A stretch of 7,819 nt of DNA from a virus (lineage: Duplodnaviria > Heunggongvirae > Uroviricota > Caudoviricetes), in the IMG/VR virus record IMGVR_UViG_2547132252_000009. One strand, given 5' to 3'. The position numbers were made by a program, and so were the translations under genes. Shown here piece after piece: positions 1 to 5,677 of the stretch. The notes beneath the pieces are model-generated. The model searched no databases and was not told where the DNA came from. It saw nothing but the letters and a program-made list of their open reading frames with translations. Within the stretch, counting starts at the first letter, position 1, and the number at the start of each line of letters is the position of its first letter.

Positions 1-442
1 CCGGTGCTTGTTCAGCTCCCGCAGCGCGGCGCAGACTCGCTCCCACTTCTGAACATCACTTTTCGCCCTGCGCAGCGCCAGGTTTGCCCTGCGAAGGGAC
101 GGAAAAATCAGCTCATCTGCTTGCGTTTCGGTAAACGATGGCAACGGCTGCACAATGTCCGCCACAGTTTCTGTTTTAATTTCTTCCTGTGTTGCGGCTT
201 CCCGGACTGGTAACGCAGCACCTGCTGGCTGAGGAAAGGCCTTACCATCACTTTCCGTTACCAGCGCGGCTTTCGGCTCTGCTGGTAAATTATCGCCCGG
301 CATGCAGTAACGAAATTTACCGTTCTGATTAACGCGTGCCAGCCGCCCCGTTGCGGTTACCACCGCCAGCGTGGAAGCAACCTTGCGAGTACTGACACCG
401 AACTTACCCGCCAGTTCCTCACACGTTTTAGCCCCATCCTGA
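1..442 (-). pseudogene. 3' portion of a disrupted hypothetical prophage ORF; open to the window edge, separated from its 5' part by the lox-like insertion and duplication
   Basis: Hand translation of the minus strand from 442 to 1 in the frame that continues the 467..940 ORF (using the copy-1 version of the repeat) gives a stop-free, protein-like reading (...[64 protein letters not shown]...). No start codon of its own is evident. Confidence 0.5.
261..442. repeat. Direct repeat copy 1 (~182 bp) of a gene-internal segment; carries gtaacg at 307-312
   Basis: 261-442 is near-identical to 485-665; the only internal difference seen is one extra A (gtaacg here, gtacg in copy 2). Confidence 0.9.
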
Positions 443-446
443 TCGT

Positions 447-480
447 ATAACTTCGTATAATGTATGCTATACGAAGTCAT
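447..480. other. lox-type recombination site: 13-bp arm, 8-bp spacer, 13-bp arm; 33/34 identical to P1 loxP in inverted orientation
   Basis: ATAACTTCGTATA ATGTATGC TATACGAAGTcAT; canonical loxP reverse complement is ATAACTTCGTATA ATGTATGC TATACGAAGTTAT. Single mismatch at 478. Lies exactly between the two direct-repeat copies. Confidence 0.85.
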
Positions 481-940
481 TACGCCAGCGCGGCTTTCGG
501 CTCTGCTGGTAAATTATCGCCCGGCATGCAGTACGAAATTTACCGTTCTGATTAACGCGTGCCAGCCGCCCCGTTGCGGTTACCACCGCCAGCGTGGAAG
601 CAACCTTGCGAGTACTGACACCGAACTTACCCGCCAGTTCCTCACACGTTTTAGCCCCATCCTGACCGATAAACTCAATCATCATGTCTGCGGTAACTTT
701 TTGTTCGACCTCCCCGGTCAGCATATCCTGTGCTTCAGATTTTACTGGCCGCTCTTCGGTTACCCGGGATTCACCTTCGCCAGCCAGAAACCAGGTGTGA
801 CCAGTTTTATCAACGACGCCATTTATTTTGAGTTCCCACAGCTCGTTGACAGCCTCTTCACGACTGATTCCAAGGCGAGCTGCCACCACATGTGAAGAGG
901 CTTTTTTCAGTGCTTTCAGTGCGTCAGATACGGTTTCCAT
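467..940 (-). CDS. Hypothetical prophage protein, truncated: genuine N-terminal part, then frameshifted by the 1-bp deletion in repeat copy 2 and terminated by TAG inside the lox-like site
   Basis: ATG at 940-938 preceded by GGAGG (ccggaggaaattttaATG). N-terminal sequence has two helix-turn-helix-like segments. The last ~22 residues ([21 protein letters not shown]) differ from the copy-1 reading and end in the lox site. Confidence 0.6.
485..665. repeat. Direct repeat copy 2 (~181 bp); 1-bp shorter than copy 1 (gtacg at 531-535)
   Basis: Same sequence as 261-442 apart from a single-base deletion; the left boundary is ambiguous by 2-4 bp (tac-g-ccagcg versus tta-ccagcg). Confidence 0.9.
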
Positions 941-961
941 TAAAATTTCCTCCGGACAAAA

Positions 962-1708
962 TTACTTCACAACCCTCATATTGCTGACATTTGGACGCCA
1001 GCTATCCCAGTTAAACGTCACCCATCGACCACCGTTCATGGTCATGCGGTCCATAATCCTCTCACCAAGAAGTGTACTCATTGCGGCATGATTCAGGTTT
1101 GTTAACATCCCGACACTGCACAGTGATGCTGTCCGGCGATCAATTATCTGGTGTAATACCACCTGCTCGTTTTTCGTCTCCCGCTGAACGCCTATTTCAT
1201 CCAGGACCAGCAAATCAACACTGCAAAGCTCCTGTAAAAATTTTTCCCCGGATTTGCCGTTGTCGTAGCTGTCATGCAACACGCTCATGACATCAGACAC
1301 GGTGACGATAATCACGCTGCGCCCCTTCGCCATCAGCCGGTTACCCATCGCCGCTGCAAGGTGATTTTTCCCGGTGCCGGTTTTACCGCTGAACACAAAA
1401 TTCGTGCACCCGGTCATCAGTTCGTCAGCTATGGATTTGGCCTGGCTCAGCGCGTATTTTAGCCCGTCGTTCTGCACCTGATAATTCGCAAACGAGCATT
1501 TGCTGTGCAGAGGCTGGATGCCCGAACGATTCAGGATTTTTTCCACCCGCAACTGGTGATTCTGGCGGTTAATCTCCTCGCTGCGTTTTCGTCCTTCAGC
1601 AAGTTGCCATTCCCGCCACTCCTCCACCGTCCGGTACGGTGGAACCGACGCCTGTGGTGCAAGTCTGCGAATACGTTCAAGAACCCCGGCTGCCGCAATG
1701 TTTTTCAT
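962..1708 (-). CDS. DnaC-like replicative helicase loader (AAA+ ATPase), prophage paralog
   Basis: 248 aa; Walker A FSGKTGTGKNHLAAAMGN, Walker B DLLVLDEIG, C-terminal VTFNWDSWR; collinear similarity to E. coli DnaC as I recall it (NRSGI.PLH..CSF.NY, GMLTN.N...M..LLGER.MDRM). Confidence 0.9.
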   Translation of the reverse strand: MKNIAAAGVLERIRRLAPQASVPPYRTVEEWREWQLAEGRKRSEEINRQNHQLRVEKILNRSGIQPLHSKCSFANYQVQNDGLKYALSQAKSIADELMTGCTNFVFSGKTGTGKNHLAAAMGNRLMAKGRSVIIVTVSDVMSVLHDSYDNGKSGEKFLQELCSVDLLVLDEIGVQRETKNEQVVLHQIIDRRTASLCSVGMLTNLNHAAMSTLLGERIMDRMTMNGGRWVTFNWDSWRPNVSNMRVVK

Positions 1709-1714
1709 GCCACA

Positions 1715-2164
1715 TCACCCCCTGAATCCCGGCGGAATTTCGGTATCCGGTTCAGAAATATGATTCACACAACGCTGGTTGTTCGTGCCGCTTACCGGGA
1801 GCAACCAGGGGTTTTCAAAATTCCGGTCCGGCCCAAAAAACGTCGTCGCTCGCTGAACAAATTCCGTTCCCGCTTTCCCGGTCGCCGCCAGGTATCTCGC
1901 GTAACGCCTCACACCATCCAGCATGGTCTCTGGTGGCACCCCCTCGCGCAATCTGGCCTTCCAGGCACTGAAAGCGGATTTCTTCGGGTTTGCCCCAGCA
2001 CGCAACGGGTATTCCCGCCAGACCTGTTCGAACACATCCGGATAATCCACTCGTCCCACAGACTGCCCGGTGCTTTCCGGGACTACCCGATCGGCTTCCC
2101 GCTGAATGGCGGAATCGGCTTCAGGCTGCTGCAGTTGGTGTGATTGCTCCGACCCTGCGGTCAT
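1715..2164 (-). CDS. DnaT-like (primosomal protein I C-terminal domain-like) protein
   Basis: C-terminus VNHISEPDTEIPPGFRG matches the DnaT C-terminus (VNTVSEPDSQIPPGFRG) as I recall it. ATG at 2164-2162 overlaps the upstream TGA (TGATG). Lies immediately upstream of the dnaC-like gene (6-bp gap), mirroring the host dnaT-dnaC operon. The ORF track starts at GTG 2176; the same frame is open upstream to 2341. Confidence 0.7.
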   Translation of the reverse strand: MTAGSEQSHQLQQPEADSAIQREADRVVPESTGQSVGRVDYPDVFEQVWREYPLRAGANPKKSAFSAWKARLREGVPPETMLDGVRRYARYLAATGKAGTEFVQRATTFFGPDRNFENPWLLPVSGTNNQRCVNHISEPDTEIPPGFRG

Positions 2165-2916
2165 CACCTGCTGCACAGCGCCCGAATCGGCTTCCGGTGT
2201 CGTGCCTGCTGGCTGACCAGGATTGACGGTCTGAACATCCCCTGCCTGGTTCGTGGTGTTTTTTTGCCATGAACCATAGTGTTTTTGTCCTGTTCCTGTT
2301 CTTTCTCCTGCTCCTGTTCCTGTTCTTGGCTTCGAAGCCCCTTAAAAGCCCCTTCGAAGCCCCTTACCGAATTTCGGCTATTATTCCGCCTCACATCCAG
2401 ATGGAAATCCGTTTTATATCTGTCGTAAAACACTGACAGAAAAGCGTTTTCAGGTAATGATGCATACTCATTCCTGACACCTGCACAACGGTTATCGCCA
2501 GGCTTCAACGTTTCCCCAACCTGCCAGGCTGCCATTTCATGGACCCAGACCATCTCTGCATCATGGTCATAGCTACAAAAACCAGCTTCAACAGCCCTTT
2601 TAAGCCCCTTTGAAGCCCCTTCCAGACCAAGCCCGGTTTCATGAGCAAGGTATAAAACTGGCAGGTAATACAAACCCAGCATATTTGCGTGAGGGGATGT
2701 CATCAGGTAAAAAGCAACAACTTGCGCTTCTGCACCCGCCTTTCTAAGTTCTCTCCCCGTTTCTCCCAGCCAGAATCGCGGAGAAACTTTTGCGTAATCA
2801 CGCATGGCTACCTCATCTGGTGCCGAACCTTCCTCCGGATATAATCTGTGGTTCCCAATCGACAGAACCAGAGGAGGTTCGACATGTATTTTTTGAAAAG
2901 CCTTTATCAGGCTCAT
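2164..2916 (-). CDS. Putative phage replication initiator (O-like replisome organizer), N-terminal domain plus (EQ)n linker; possibly the 5' part of a frameshifted initiator-DnaT fusion
   Basis: 250-aa ORF with internal repeats GLEGASKGLKRA / GFEGAFKGLRS and an EQEQEQEKEQEQ linker. After the A7 run the tail is arginine-rich and junk-like. Alternative start ATG at 2805 with GAGG 5 nt upstream (MRDYAKV...); ATG at 2916 has no clear SD. Confidence 0.6.
   Translation of the reverse strand: MSLIKAFQKIHVEPPLVLSIGNHRLYPEEGSAPDEVAMRDYAKVSPRFWLGETGRELRKAGAEAQVVAFYLMTSPHANMLGLYYLPVLYLAHETGLGLEGASKGLKRAVEAGFCSYDHDAEMVWVHEMAAWQVGETLKPGDNRCAGVRNEYASLPENAFLSVFYDRYKTDFHLDVRRNNSRNSVRGFEGAFKGLRSQEQEQEQEKEQEQDKNTMVHGKKTPRTRQGMFRPSILVSQQARHRKPIRALCSR
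2285..2366. repeat. Imperfect hexamer repeat (TCCTGT)n at 2285-2326 followed by three tandem 11-bp iteron-like units T(C/A)(G/A)AAGCCCCT at 2332-2364
   Basis: Read directly: tcctgt tcctgt tctttc tcctgc tcctgt tcctgt, then tcgaagcccct taaaagcccct tcgaagcccct, at helical-turn spacing. Confidence 0.7.
2593..2623. repeat. Second cluster of three tandem 10-11 bp AGCCCCTT-type repeats
   Basis: agccctttta agcccctttga agccccttcc; same core as the 2332-2364 cluster, about 260 bp away, inside the initiator ORF. Confidence 0.6.
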
Positions 2917-3339
2917 GTATTAAATGTTGCAGCAACAAACCGCTGGTGTAACAGCCCCGAAATGCTCCCGGATTACAGAGCCTGGCTGCGCGCCGAAACA
3001 TACCTTCGTCTCGACATATTGATTAGCGAACTTCAAAAAGAGACTGCATCCATTCATAACCTTCAGGGTATCGACGCTGTTCGCATTCTGGTATCGCGCC
3101 ATAGTGCTCTCTCAATAATTGAAGTGCGTCATCTCTCTTTTTCTGAACTGATTTTCTTGCTTCAACCAGCTCTGGAATCAGCGAATATCCCGCCGGAAGT
3201 GATCCAATACCCACCTCATGTTGACGAGCAGTTACAAGATGTGCCATACAACCAGCGTGCTGGATTGACTCCCTGCTCAGAGGCTGAATGGGATCACTCT
3301 CTGCTGAAGAAATACCAAGATTTGTATAATCCTCAATAA
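2884..3339 (+). CDS. Alternative hypothetical ORF (151 aa) antisense to 3023..3532
   Basis: ATG 2884 preceded by perfect AGGAGG at 2872-2877 with 6-nt spacing. Protein is Leu/Ser/Ile-rich, as antisense ORFs often are; orientation is opposite to the surrounding operon. Confidence 0.25.
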   Translation: MYFLKSLYQAHVLNVAATNRWCNSPEMLPDYRAWLRAETYLRLDILISELQKETASIHNLQGIDAVRILVSRHSALSIIEVRHLSFSELIFLLQPALESANIPPEVIQYPPHVDEQLQDVPYNQRAGLTPCSEAEWDHSLLKKYQDLYNPQ

Positions 3340-3532
3340 GCCCGGCACACGCTTCTGCATCAGCCAGCTTTATTCTGGTTTCCTTGCGCTGTTCTCTGGC
3401 TGACAAACGCCAGAGCAGCGCATTAGCTTTATGTATCAACCACTCTGCCAGCTCCACATCAGATAAACCGCCACGCCAGATGTGCGGACTGTTTTCGTAA
3501 ACGCTCAGTGTCAATTTTTTGTCATTACTCAT
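3023..3532 (-). CDS. Hypothetical protein (169 aa) between the ydaT-like gene and the replication initiator
   Basis: ORF in operon orientation with ydaS/ydaT/initiator; balanced charged/hydrophobic composition. Start taken as ATG 3532 (MSNDKKLTLSV...), weak SD; the track's GTG start at 3583 would overlap ydaT. Competes with the antisense plus-strand ORF 2884..3339. Confidence 0.5.
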   Translation of the reverse strand: MSNDKKLTLSVYENSPHIWRGGLSDVELAEWLIHKANALLWRLSAREQRKETRIKLADAEACAGLIEDYTNLGISSAESDPIQPLSRESIQHAGCMAHLVTARQHEVGIGSLPAGYSLIPELVEARKSVQKKRDDALQLLREHYGAIPECEQRRYPEGYEWMQSLFEVR

Positions 3533-3545
3533 ATTTATTACCCAA

Positions 3546-3971
3546 TTAATGCACAGCCAGAGTGTTTCCTGCCGGGCCACCACGATTCATCTGATCGAAC
3601 AGAACGATCGCTGATGCAACGAAATCATCAATATCTTTCACCAGCCGTTCCTTCGTCTCTACCAACTCCCGAAAATAAGCGGAACTGTGGCTGCGCATTC
3701 GGGCCACCAGCGGAGGCGGCATCGCTTTTTCGATCGCTGGTAACAACGCCTGAATTTTTTTAACCGCATCAGGAGTGTCTTTCTCCACCCAGCGGAAAAT
3801 TTTCTGAGTATTGCGAGCCATGGCTTCCGGATGGCTGTCGTCATACAGTTCCGGGAACGTCATTCCCAGCTCGAAATACGCTTTGGTAATTTTCGCAGCC
3901 GGTACTTTTTCGCCGTCCGGATGCGCCCAGGCATTCATCGCCATGCGGATGTGTTCATGCTTGATTTTCAT
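3546..3971 (-). CDS. ydaT: YdaT-like protein (CII-like regulator / putative toxin family)
   Basis: 141 aa starting MKIKHEHIR..., recalled as the Rac YdaT N-terminus; sits directly downstream of the Cro-like gene with a 17-bp overlap; GGAG 9 nt upstream of the ATG. Confidence 0.75.
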   Translation of the reverse strand: MKIKHEHIRMAMNAWAHPDGEKVPAAKITKAYFELGMTFPELYDDSHPEAMARNTQKIFRWVEKDTPDAVKKIQALLPAIEKAMPPPLVARMRSHSSAYFRELVETKERLVKDIDDFVASAIVLFDQMNRGGPAGNTLAVH

Positions 3972-4227
3972 GAATCAACTCCGGCGCATTTGATGTGTTA
4001 ACCTTACATCCAACAGGTAAACCGTCGGTTGGGTTAGGATAAATATCTGGGCGGATTTCATGCGGGGTAACTTCCCACTTCATTAGTTGGCATAACGGAA
4101 TTACCTGCTTTGGGGGAACGCCAAAGCTAAACCATTGCCAAACAGTCTGTTGAGCGACCCCCATATAACGACCTATTTCAGCCTGAGTGTATTTCTGCCT
4201 AATTTTTTCGCGAGTGCTATCTAGCAT
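3955..4227 (-). CDS. ydaS: Cro-like HTH regulator (YdaS-like)
   Basis: 90 aa; HTH motif AEIGRYMGVAQQTVWQW; ATG 4227 preceded by GGAGG (5-nt spacer); divergent from the repressor gene across the operator region. Confidence 0.8.
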   Translation of the reverse strand: MLDSTREKIRQKYTQAEIGRYMGVAQQTVWQWFSFGVPPKQVIPLCQLMKWEVTPHEIRPDIYPNPTDGLPVGCKVNTSNAPELIHENQA

Positions 4228-4260
4228 TTTGCCCTCCTCTAAAAACTATAAGCAAAGCCT

Positions 4261-4299
4261 ACAATAAAAAACTGTATGCAATCAACAGTTTTTTATTGT
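4261..4299. promoter_or_regulatory. Operator: perfect 15-bp inverted repeat ACAATAAAAAACTGT / ACAGTTTTTTATTGT with 9-bp spacer, in the divergent ydaS / repressor intergenic region
   Basis: 4261-4275 is the exact reverse complement of 4285-4299. A further ACAG/CTGT mini-palindrome lies at 4306-4328. Candidate -10 TATAGT for ydaS (minus strand, 4243-4248) and TAAAAT (4324-4329) for the repressor gene. Confidence 0.7.
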
Positions 4300-4335
4300 G
4301 ATGCTTTTAACAGTATTTACCTGTAAAATTGAATA

Positions 4336-4737
4336 ATGATGAGCGCCCTAGAAGTATCTATGTACAGAATCAGCAAGCTTCTTCAGGAAACTGGATGGAG
4401 CCAGGCTGAGCTTGCCCGTAGAATTGGTGTGACACAACAAACTGTTCAACAATGGGTCAGCGGTAAGGCTACACCTAAAGCCTCAAGTTTGGATAAACTG
4501 GTTGAGGTTTCAGGGCATCCATTGCATTGGTTTTTATTGCCTCCTGAAGAGTGTGAGCAAATTTTCACCCCTGACACGATGAAAATTGGTCCTCGCCAAC
4601 GCGAACTGCTCCAAGCTTTTAGTGCGTTTCCTGAGGAAGACCAAGAAAAAATGCTTCAAGAAATCAAAGACAAGAAAAAATCAATGGAAGAAACCATTGC
4701 TAGGTGGCTGGCGGCACAAAAAAGCCGCCGGGCGTGA
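4336..4737 (+). CDS. paaR2: CI-like XRE-family repressor, PaaR2-like
   Basis: 133 aa; HTH SQAELARRIGVTQQTVQQWVSG; first gene of a three-gene operon with a small antitoxin and a ParE toxin; divergent from the Cro-like gene. Confidence 0.8.
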   Translation: MMSALEVSMYRISKLLQETGWSQAELARRIGVTQQTVQQWVSGKATPKASSLDKLVEVSGHPLHWFLLPPEECEQIFTPDTMKIGPRQRELLQAFSAFPEEDQEKMLQEIKDKKKSMEETIARWLAAQKSRRA

Positions 4738-4764
4738 CCACAGTACAAGAAGAGGAGTTATGCC

Positions 4765-4956
4765 ATGGGTACAGCCCTTTCTCCGATAGTTTCAGAATTC
4801 GAAACTACCGAACAAGAAAACAGTTACAACGAATGGTTGCGCACTAAAGTAACGTCAAGCCTTGCAGACACTCGCCCCGCAATTCCACATGACGAGGTAA
4901 TGGCTGAAATGGAAAATCTTATTGCTCAAATTGCTGTAACTAACAAGAGCGAGTAA
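4765..4956 (+). CDS. paaA2: Small acidic antitoxin, PaaA2-like
   Basis: 63 aa, acidic; GAGGAG 6 nt upstream of ATG 4765; its stop overlaps the toxin start (TAATG). Confidence 0.8.
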   Translation: MGTALSPIVSEFETTEQENSYNEWLRTKVTSSLADTRPAIPHDEVMAEMENLIAQIAVTNKSE

Positions 4957-5243
4957 TGTTACCCATTTTATGGCTACCGTCTGCTCGCGATGATTTGCGC
5001 CAGATCATAACTTACATCGCCAAGGAGAACCCACCGGCAGCACGTAGACTAAAAATACGCATTGAAACATCGGTATTACCTCTATCTGAGCATCCGTACT
5101 TATATCCACCAAGCGAACGGGTTTCTGGATTGAGAGAGATCGTGACCCACCCTAACTACATAATCCTGTACAGAGTAGCTGCTTCAAGCATTGAGATTGT
5201 AAGCGTGACACATTCTCGGCGACAATTTCCCTTCTCTATCTGA
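4956..5243 (+). CDS. parE2: ParE/RelE-superfamily toxin, ParE2-like
   Basis: 95 aa; ParE-like N-terminus MLPILWLPSARDDLRQIITYIAKENPPAARRL; translationally coupled to the upstream antitoxin. Confidence 0.85.
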   Translation: MLPILWLPSARDDLRQIITYIAKENPPAARRLKIRIETSVLPLSEHPYLYPPSERVSGLREIVTHPNYIILYRVAASSIEIVSVTHSRRQFPFSI

Positions 5244-5261
5244 GTTGAACAATTTTCATAC

Positions 5262-5284
5262 TCCCTCTTTCGAGGGATTTTTTT
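5262..5284 (+). terminator. Rho-independent terminator after parE2
   Basis: tccctc-tttc-gaggga hairpin (6-bp stem, 4-nt loop) followed by a T7 run at 5278-5284. Confidence 0.6.
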
Positions 5285-5294
5285 GCCCAAAACA

Positions 5295-5334
5295 ACAATT
5301 AAAAACTGTTGACACAAAAACAGTTTTTTATTGT
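5295..5334. promoter_or_regulatory. Second operator copy (ACAATTAAAAACTGT, 10-bp spacer, ACAGTTTTTTATTGT) with a perfect TTGACA -35 in the spacer, upstream of the ydfA operon
   Basis: Right half-site 5320-5334 is identical to 4285-4299; left half 14/15 identical; TTGACA at 5309-5314. A -10 is not clearly identifiable (TAGATT at 5335-5340 is too far). Confidence 0.55.
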
Positions 5335-5520
5335 AGATTACATACACCAACCACCCACCCCGCCCCACAGAACGCCGGGCAATACTTCGAGTTACCAAGC
5401 AGTGGTCAGGGGGTAAGTAGCCAGCCCGAGGCGTATGAACATGACGGCAGGGTTCAACTTTAATAACTATGCAGCAGGTTTTTGTTCCGCTACCCGGCGT
5501 TAAGGGGAAATGAGGTCAAC

Positions 5521-5676
5521 ATGGATACTATCGATCTTGGCAACAACGAATCTCTGGTGTACGGCGTGTTTCCCAACCAGGACGGTACATTCACCGCGAT
5601 GACGTATACCAAAAGCAAAACGTTTAAAACCGAAAATGGTGCCCGTCGCTGGCTGGAAAGAAACTCAGGTGAGTGA
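5521..5676 (+). CDS. ydfA: YdfA-like small protein (51 aa)
   Basis: ATG 5521 with GAGG 5 nt upstream; sequence MDTIDLGNNESLVYGVFPNQDGTFTAMTYTKSKTFKTENGARRWLERNSGE recalled as Qin YdfA. The track's longer ORF from 5482 is a likely N-terminal over-extension. Confidence 0.75.
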   Translation: MDTIDLGNNESLVYGVFPNQDGTFTAMTYTKSKTFKTENGARRWLERNSGE

Positions 5677-5677
5677 T

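Follow-up and report, generated by a model that had tools for sequence, protein, structure and literature searches.

Two overlapping minus-strand reading frames of the window, that is, the whole stretch of 7,819 nucleotides that we analysed (IMG/VR virus record IMGVR_UViG_2547132252_000009), are, judging from their sequence, the two halves of a single prophage replication-initiator gene, a 'replisome organizer' of 363 residues. The region almost certainly holds one gene split by a homopolymer that is one base shorter than in other copies, and neither a programmed frameshift nor a pair of genes. Two overlapping ORFs are seen in the window because a run of eight adenines (A8) in the linker-coding part of the gene is recorded there as seven (A7).

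The locus forms part of the early-gene block of a lambdoid prophage of the O157 type. In minus-strand order, the YdaS-like and YdaT-like genes are followed by the initiator frames, by a gene for a DnaC/IstB-like AAA+ protein, which is the likely partner of the initiator, and by a DUF1627 gene. The features of the block and of the frame break are as follows:

4336-4737, plus strand: cI-like repressor.
4227-3546, minus strand: YdaS-like and YdaT-like genes.
2164-2805, minus strand: N-terminal ORF of 213 aa (phrog_1701 residues 1-189; phrog_25210 over the whole ORF).
2259-2265, minus strand: A7 homopolymer, the frame-break site (from aligning the window to FORC_044 and PV15-279, and from allele counts).
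2162-2166, minus strand: TGATG stop/start overlap, incidental (in-frame GTG ATG, Val-Met, in the intact allele).
1715-2258, minus strand: variable linker and conserved C-terminal domain, in the A8-joined frame (matches to phrog_1701, phrog_3729 and phrog_18526).
962-1708, minus strand: DnaC/IstB-like AAA+ helicase-loader gene, immediately downstream of the initiator (Pfam IstB_IS21 1.4e-18 and Bac_DnaA 9e-8; PGAP 'ATP-binding protein').

Reading frames at the break

Read directly from the sequence, the A7 run of the coding strand is the plus-strand T7 at 2259-2265. The N-terminal frame extends from the ATG at 2805 to the TGA at 2164 and reads ...EQEQDKNTMVHGKK, then TPRTRQGMFRPSILVSQQARHRKPIRALCSR, with its stop at 2166-2164. 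The second frame opens just after the TAA at 2344-2342, reads ...QKNTTNQAGDVQTVNPGQPAGTTPEADSGAVQQVMTAGSEQ... to GFRG and stops at 1715; from 2341 it is open through QKNTTNQAGDVQTVNPGQPAGTTPEADSGAVQQV straight into the C-terminal domain, and the two frames meet in -1 register. The preliminary description of this DNA had placed the run, the -1 register of the join and the opening of the second frame, with a linker leading directly into the C-terminal domain, at these same positions, and our reading of the frames confirms all three.

Residues 1-182 of the 213-aa ORF are the native N-terminal domain and an acidic Q/E repeat, and the 31 residues that follow, encoded from 2259 to the stop at 2166-2164, form an out-of-frame, basic tail. 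The tail beyond the run, which had already been suspected of being non-native, is in fact linker sequence read in the wrong frame. The start at ATG 2805 has a GAGG 5 nt upstream and is also the start chosen by PGAP; ATG 2916, the head of the longest ORF, is not the supported start. Taken alone, the C-terminal ORF could begin only at ATG 2164 (149 aa) or at GTG 2176 (153 aa). A run of seven adenines is unremarkable by itself, since the window contains five homopolymers of 7 bases. The non-random part is that the joined frames match a conserved single protein residue for residue.

Intact alleles and homologs

To compare this region with other genomes, positions 1600-3000 of the window were searched by megablast against 5,426 complete E. 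coli genomes, 470 of which matched over at least 80% of its length. The top match, FORC_044, is 100% identical over 1401 bases, and the next ones are 99.9% identical over 1402 bases, their extra base being located in the homopolymer, which is then A8. The alignment of the window with the intact allele shows exactly one A fewer, in the run, where the intact allele reads GGC AAA AAA AAC (G K K N). Exact matches to 80-82-base queries with the run at their centre were counted: of the 439 complete E. coli genomes that have this 81-base stretch with a run of A7, A8 or A9, 436 have A8, 2 have A9 and 1 has A7, which is FORC_044. The A8 run fuses the frames into one CDS of 1092 nt in the PGAP annotation, and the 363-aa product is 100% identical to WP_001205823.1; in FORC_044 PGAP labels the same interval as a 'frameshifted' pseudogene. 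A related gene with GGC GTA AAA AAC at the site is present in about 1,535 further genomes and in seven phage records, and here again it is a single CDS, encoding 356 aa (CDS of 1071 nt) in the three phage records examined (Tritos, Evi and 689R5).

A protein search identified 1,808 relatives, and the best 120 of them, contig-end partials aside, are single proteins of 290-370 aa, with no split homolog among them; they come from E. coli, Shigella, Klebsiella, Raoultella, Lelliottia, Serratia, Erwinia, Citrobacter and Pluralibacter. When 23 relatives representing at least 8 genera were aligned, the proteins were likewise all fused, with 290-370 aa. These have a constant architecture, with an N-domain, an acidic Q/E/D repeat, a linker whose length varies greatly and a conserved C-domain, and most of them end in the tail motif PDxxIPxGFRG. 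The break point falls within the variable linker. At this site Lys-Lys-Asn is not conserved among the 23 relatives, which have HGDAT, HGEKI, HGVKN or SDSKKM instead, and the methionine with which the downstream ORF could begin (Met215) is L or A in the homologs. Since the Lys-Lys codons are not conserved and the internal Met is not either, the alignment supports neither a programmed frameshift nor a two-gene design.

The repaired (A8) protein aligns with phrog_1701 in one stretch, from residue 1 to 363 and from profile position 1 to 323 (E 8.9e-149), and the two ORFs of the window match the halves of this profile, 1-189 and 186-323. The full-length match over residues 1-363 places the protein in the family called 'phage replisome organizer' or 'DNA-binding protein' by NCBI (WP_001205823.1); the PHROGs name of phrog_1701 is 'DnaD-like helicase loader'. 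A Pfam search with the repaired 363-aa protein retrieved no family at E <= 0.01, Phage_rep_O included. In the intact protein the N-terminal domain is followed by an acidic Q/E repeat and a variable linker, and the protein ends with a helical C-terminal domain and a DnaT-type tail.

These results bear out the first of two readings offered in the preliminary description, a single initiator frameshifted at the homopolymer, whose homologs were expected to be one protein of ~360-400 aa. The homologs are indeed fused, with 363 aa in the same prophage type, which is within the predicted range, and 290-370 aa elsewhere.

Two genes, recoding or a switch

The second of the two readings was that of separate coupled genes. 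In the form considered here, the TGATG would couple the translation of a gene for an origin-binding protein to that of a gene for a DnaT-like adaptor, and we give this hardly any probability at all. The overlap does exist at 2166-2162 on the minus strand, and PHROGs has one family for each half (phrog_25210 and phrog_18526). The overlap is, however, equally there and in frame in the single-gene allele, so its presence, which had been taken to speak for separate genes, lends them no support once the Val-Met of the A8 allele is considered. The AGGTG abuts the ATG directly, a poor spacing for a Shine-Dalgarno site, and the 31-residue end of the upstream ORF is linker sequence out of frame; phrog_25210 reaches into this tail and was therefore evidently built from frameshifted calls. 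This reading fails because the homologs are fused (none of the best 120 of the 1,808 relatives being split, contig-end partials aside), because the internal Met is variable and because phrog_1701 is matched from end to end.

It is exceedingly unlikely that the run is a site of programmed recoding, at which a -1 ribosomal frameshift or transcriptional slippage would yield the full-length initiator from the A7 allele, or a truncated N-domain regulator from the A8 allele. A-runs read by tRNA-Lys are slippery in E. coli, as in dnaX (A_AAA_AAG) and IS1 (A_AAA_AAC); the run studied here is of the same kind, A AAA AAC is a zero-frame heptamer of the A8 allele, retained as GTA AAA AAC in genes of the Tritos type. 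In contrast to the dnaX and IS1 sites, however, the normal product of this gene needs no shift, as the intact allele is read straight through, and the heptamer is not conserved, no stimulator lies at the canonical distance and the trans-frame product lacks conservation. Lys-Lys-Asn is unconserved outside near-identical DNA (>90% identical), and the tails encoded in the alternative frames have no conserved counterpart. No Shine-Dalgarno-like element is visible in the sequence upstream. In the RNA fold predicted around the tract, the loop of a weak hairpin contains the run, and a further stem begins only ~14 nt downstream, whereas stimulators usually lie at 5-9 nt; this fold, computed to look for a stimulator, was not significant (z = -1.68, with 9 of 200 shuffles folding as well). 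In the window the A7 heptamer is C_AAA_AAA, which is non-canonical, and in this allele re-pairing at the P site would have to take place on the codon CAA. Some low-level spontaneous slippage of tRNA-Lys and RNA polymerase is to be expected on A7 or A8, and this is leakiness and not design. It had been proposed that the frames were separated by mutation or by slippage at the homopolymer: the one-base frameshift at the run holds, and programmed slippage finds no support, there being neither a conserved site nor a stimulator at the usual spacing.

We also consider it very unlikely that A8 is a contingency (phase-variable) switch in the linker-coding, origin-proximal part of the gene, in which slippage to A7 or A9 would reversibly toggle the replication competence of the prophage; if it were, the A7, A8 and A9 forms in deposited genomes would be real subpopulations and not noise.

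The single-gene reading matters for annotation hygiene, since the split yields two spurious proteins from one gene. Databases already contain such calls, the first half as 'Primosomal protein I / hypothetical protein' (213 or 250 aa) and the second as 'DNA-binding protein' (149 or 153 aa), and each half apparently has a PHROGs family of its own.

Cause of the shortened run

The A7 most likely arose when 454-type pyrosequencing for the source assembly undercalled the homopolymer, and we regard this as probable. The preliminary description touched on such a cause only by asking for a check of the read support for the A7 length. Positions 1-5805 of the window are 100% identical to scaffold GL896790.1 (GCA_000215165.1). 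Unlike all other loci compared, this scaffold contains a 189-bp stretch of the DUF1627 gene twice, at 261-450 and 485-672, and the two copies are separated by TCGTATAACTTCGTATAATGTATGCTATACGAAGTCATTACG, which is a Cre-lox mate-pair linker with its loxP core at 447-480 (33 of 34 bases, none expected by chance):

443-484, plus strand: Cre-lox (454-type) mate-pair linker, an untrimmed artefact (41/42 bases).

Among the 16 loci fetched, the linker is present in the source scaffold only. The sequence of the Cre-lox adapter has been quoted as that of a mate-pair adapter (PMC5199103). The untrimmed linker and the false duplication indicate that the assembly was made from a mate-pair linker library. 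We take the linker at 443-484 to be the Roche 454 Titanium paired-end linker, and the 454 chemistry of the assembly is presumed on this basis. Pyrosequencing is notorious for miscounting long homopolymers, and the undercall of an 8-mer is a classic error; the true A8 is the longest homopolymer of the region.

The distribution of the A7 allele was also considered. The exact 213-aa frameshift product is found on 23 contigs, compared with at least 1,000 for the intact protein. Among the carriers of A7 are at least six older drafts of the DEC3/DEC4 strains, whose accession numbers are close neighbours, and the carriers differ at SNP positions 1461, 3192 and 4257/4258 and across 5316-5329, which means that A7 occurs on several backgrounds. 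Two of these drafts (L007 and L012) show single-base indels at other short homopolymers too. The allele is best explained as a platform error, since it is common in one batch of older drafts, is spread over several backgrounds and is found in only 1 of the 439 finished genomes. The differing gene calls in the DEC loci were dropped as evidence of error: two of these loci are identical in sequence to the window, so the differences come from the annotation pipeline.

A real A7, produced by a rare slippage deletion in the A8 tract and leaving the initiator as a pseudogene, is a less likely though appreciable possibility. It competes with the artefact as the cause of the missing base, and the region would still be one gene. 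The 23 contigs with the exact 213-aa product include FORC_044, two draft genomes that were deposited in 2024 and, from a recent run, one Logan assembly; should any of these prove to be Illumina-based, some isolates at least would truly have A7. The existence of A9 variants shows that the tract varies in deposited genomes, and selection on the gene may be weak in a prophage. Against a real deletion, only 3 of the 439 complete genomes deviate from A8 over the exact 81-base stretch, the several SNP backgrounds would need recurrent mutation, and the source assembly demonstrably contains a library adapter and a false duplication. If A7 is real, the N-domain fragment could bind the iteron-like repeats described below and could not recruit the helicase, making the prophage copy replication-defective; this would be merely the loss of an initiator in one O157-type prophage copy, as is common in the pool of defective prophages. 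Under neither cause, artefact or mutation, is the split a designed feature.

A DnaT-type tail at the C-terminus

The origin-like layout of the gene and the tail of its product are of more biological interest than the frameshift. The tail is encoded at the very end of the gene:

1718-1792, minus strand: C-terminal tail SGTNNQRCVNHISEPDTEIPPGFRG, sharing 60% identity with the 25 C-terminal residues of E. coli DnaT.

The BLASTP comparison of the tail with the DnaT C-terminus (...VSEPDSQIPPGFRG) gave 15 identities in 25 positions (E 4e-8), and an hhalign alignment with a DnaT profile covered 68 columns with a probability of 88.8% (E 2.5e-6). Only positions 156-179 of the NCBIfam DnaT profile are matched (E about 1e-3), with a score of 17.8-19.5 bits, which does not reach the equivalog cut-off of 201 bits. 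The DnaT chains 6aep, 2ru8 and 9zbt in the PDB match the same tail segment. The motif ...SEPDxxIPPGFRG is present, and in the alignment it is conserved in most relatives. AF2 modelling of the C-terminal ORF placed three helices at ORF residues 43-95; confidence in the structure models was low (pLDDT 67 and 58), and fold searches returned nothing significant.

The C-terminal domain had been described as DnaT-like. Because the DnaT equivalog model is far from being reached, this term holds for the tail of ~25 residues only: it fits the last ~25 residues, with their 60% identity, and not the domain as a whole, which stays at 17.8-19.5 bits against 201. In its N-terminal domain and its linker, DnaT has no similarity to the initiator. 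The gene order is shared, the initiator being directly upstream of a DnaC-like gene as dnaT is upstream of dnaC. Residues 154-179 of DnaT contribute to its ssDNA affinity and cooperativity (PMC4132743); the extreme tail is not discussed in a paper on the preprimosome (PMC13377028), and we found no link in the literature between the DnaT tail and phage replisome organizers. The presence of a host DnaT tail in a widespread family of enterobacterial phage initiators suggests mimicry of the ssDNA or primosome contacts of DnaT at a phage origin.

Origin-like repeats and comparison with lambda O

Repeats and a skewed tract are located within the initiator gene:

2591-2621, minus strand: second AAGGGGCTT cluster with an 11-bp period, composed of two exact copies (2602-2621) and one 7/9 copy (2591-2599).
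2335-2365, minus strand: three exact copies of AAGGGGCTT with an 11-bp period, iteron-like and probably repeats of an origin.
2240-2334, minus strand: purine-rich, A-rich tract encoding the acidic Q/E repeat and containing the A-run (from AT skew).

The gene contains five exact copies of AAGGGGCTT in the two clusters, where ~0.06 would be expected by chance as estimated for the window. The A-rich tract has, on the plus strand, an AT skew of -0.69 to -0.76 (-0.76 at 2270-2329) and a GC content of 0.45-0.47. It lies at the place of the A/T-rich region of a lambda-type origin, and from its position it may be the corresponding origin element. In the Tritos-type relatives the N-domain is unrelated, and GTCACG repeats (5 + 3 copies) occupy the same two places; the DNA homology of these genes to the window starts only ~20 nt upstream of the A-run. 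We infer that the N-domain is exchanged together with its repeats as a specificity module, and that the C-terminal half is a common module bringing the helicase-loading machinery.

The gene may therefore contain a putative origin in the layout of lambda O and ori-lambda, a view that is based on the DnaC/IstB-like neighbour, the DnaT tail, the internal repeats, the A-skewed tract and the module exchange. On this layout, the N-domain of the intact protein would bind the iteron-like repeats within its own gene and the adjacent A-rich tract would melt; the C-domain and the tail could then engage ssDNA, the DnaC-like loader encoded next door, or both, so that host DnaB would be loaded. Such a model corresponds to the action of lambda O with ori-lambda and P.

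The two systems are alike in several respects. Both initiators have N- and C-terminal domains joined by a linker, and both genes have phased direct repeats (with an 11-bp period here) and an A-rich, strand-asymmetric tract in their own linker-coding part. In both, the N-domain and the repeats are swapped together between relatives that share the C-terminal half, and a helicase-loader gene follows the initiator, which is DnaC/IstB-like here and not lambda P. In contrast, the protein studied here has no sequence membership in the phage O family or any other Pfam family, and its 9-mers form two clusters of three, whereas lambda has four 19-bp iterons.

Mosaic structure of the initiator gene

Comparison of the prophage with the loci of phages Tritos, Evi and 689R5, where the initiator is a single coding sequence, placed a mosaic junction within the initiator gene. 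The features of the gene are:

~2285, mosaic junction of this prophage relative to the Tritos/Evi type
2335-2365 and 2591-2621, minus strand, two clusters of iteron-like AAGGGGCTT repeats inside the initiator gene, spaced at an 11-bp period
1718-1792, minus strand, C-terminal 25 residues of the initiator (...VNHISEPDTEIPPGFRG), a close match to the C-terminal tail of host DnaT

At the A-run, an A7 homopolymer, the gene is read as an N-ORF and a C-ORF, and DNA homology with the Tritos/Evi type begins some 20 nt upstream of this run. The two types have the C-half in common, as a module that occurs at up to five places per genome, but not the N-domain or the repeats. 'Partial' proteins of 183-222 aa are numerous, because short-read assemblies often break at this junction. 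Calls of the N-ORF and the C-ORF as separate genes also seem to have entered the PHROGs database, where phrog_25210 matches the frameshifted N-ORF, out-of-frame tail included, and phrog_18526 matches the C-ORF; both families are listed as 'unknown function' and appear to have grown out of this splitting of a single initiator gene.

Putative origin and DnaT-type tail

The two AAGGGGCTT clusters lie about 256 bp apart, and each encodes the peptide EGA(S/F)KGL, which is kept in relatives. Tritos-type relatives carry instead GTCACG repeats at both matching positions, paired with a different N-domain. The AAGGGGCTT repeat region is probably a phage origin, in the style of lambda O. At the C-terminus, the DnaT-type motif is retained in most enterobacterial relatives of the initiator, and is replaced by a longer acidic tail in homologs from Serratia and Erwinia and in some metagenomic ones. 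Tritos, Evi and 689R5 have the C-half of the initiator without a DnaC-like gene downstream, a LygF-like gene following the initiator in its place, and therefore the C-domain may work directly with host DnaC/DnaB.

False duplication and other genes in the window

An assembly artefact affects the DUF1627 gene:

443-484, Cre-lox mate-pair library linker (41/42 match), presumably 454-type
261-450 and 485-672, on either side of the linker, a 189-bp segment of the DUF1627 gene present twice

Since the linker and the duplicated stretch were assembled in, the gene is cut to 157 aa, versus 256 aa elsewhere; among the loci compared, both occur only in the source scaffold, GL896790.1.

The long ORFs at 2885-3340 (plus) and 3023-3583 (minus) overlap each other, and neither has a Pfam match. 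The former is the PGAP call (151 aa, 'ECs1072 family phage-associated protein') and the latter, of 185/186 aa, the choice of older annotations. A pair formed by a PaaA2/RelB-like antitoxin and a ParE/RelE-family toxin (4765-5243, plus strand) adjoins the prophage repressor.
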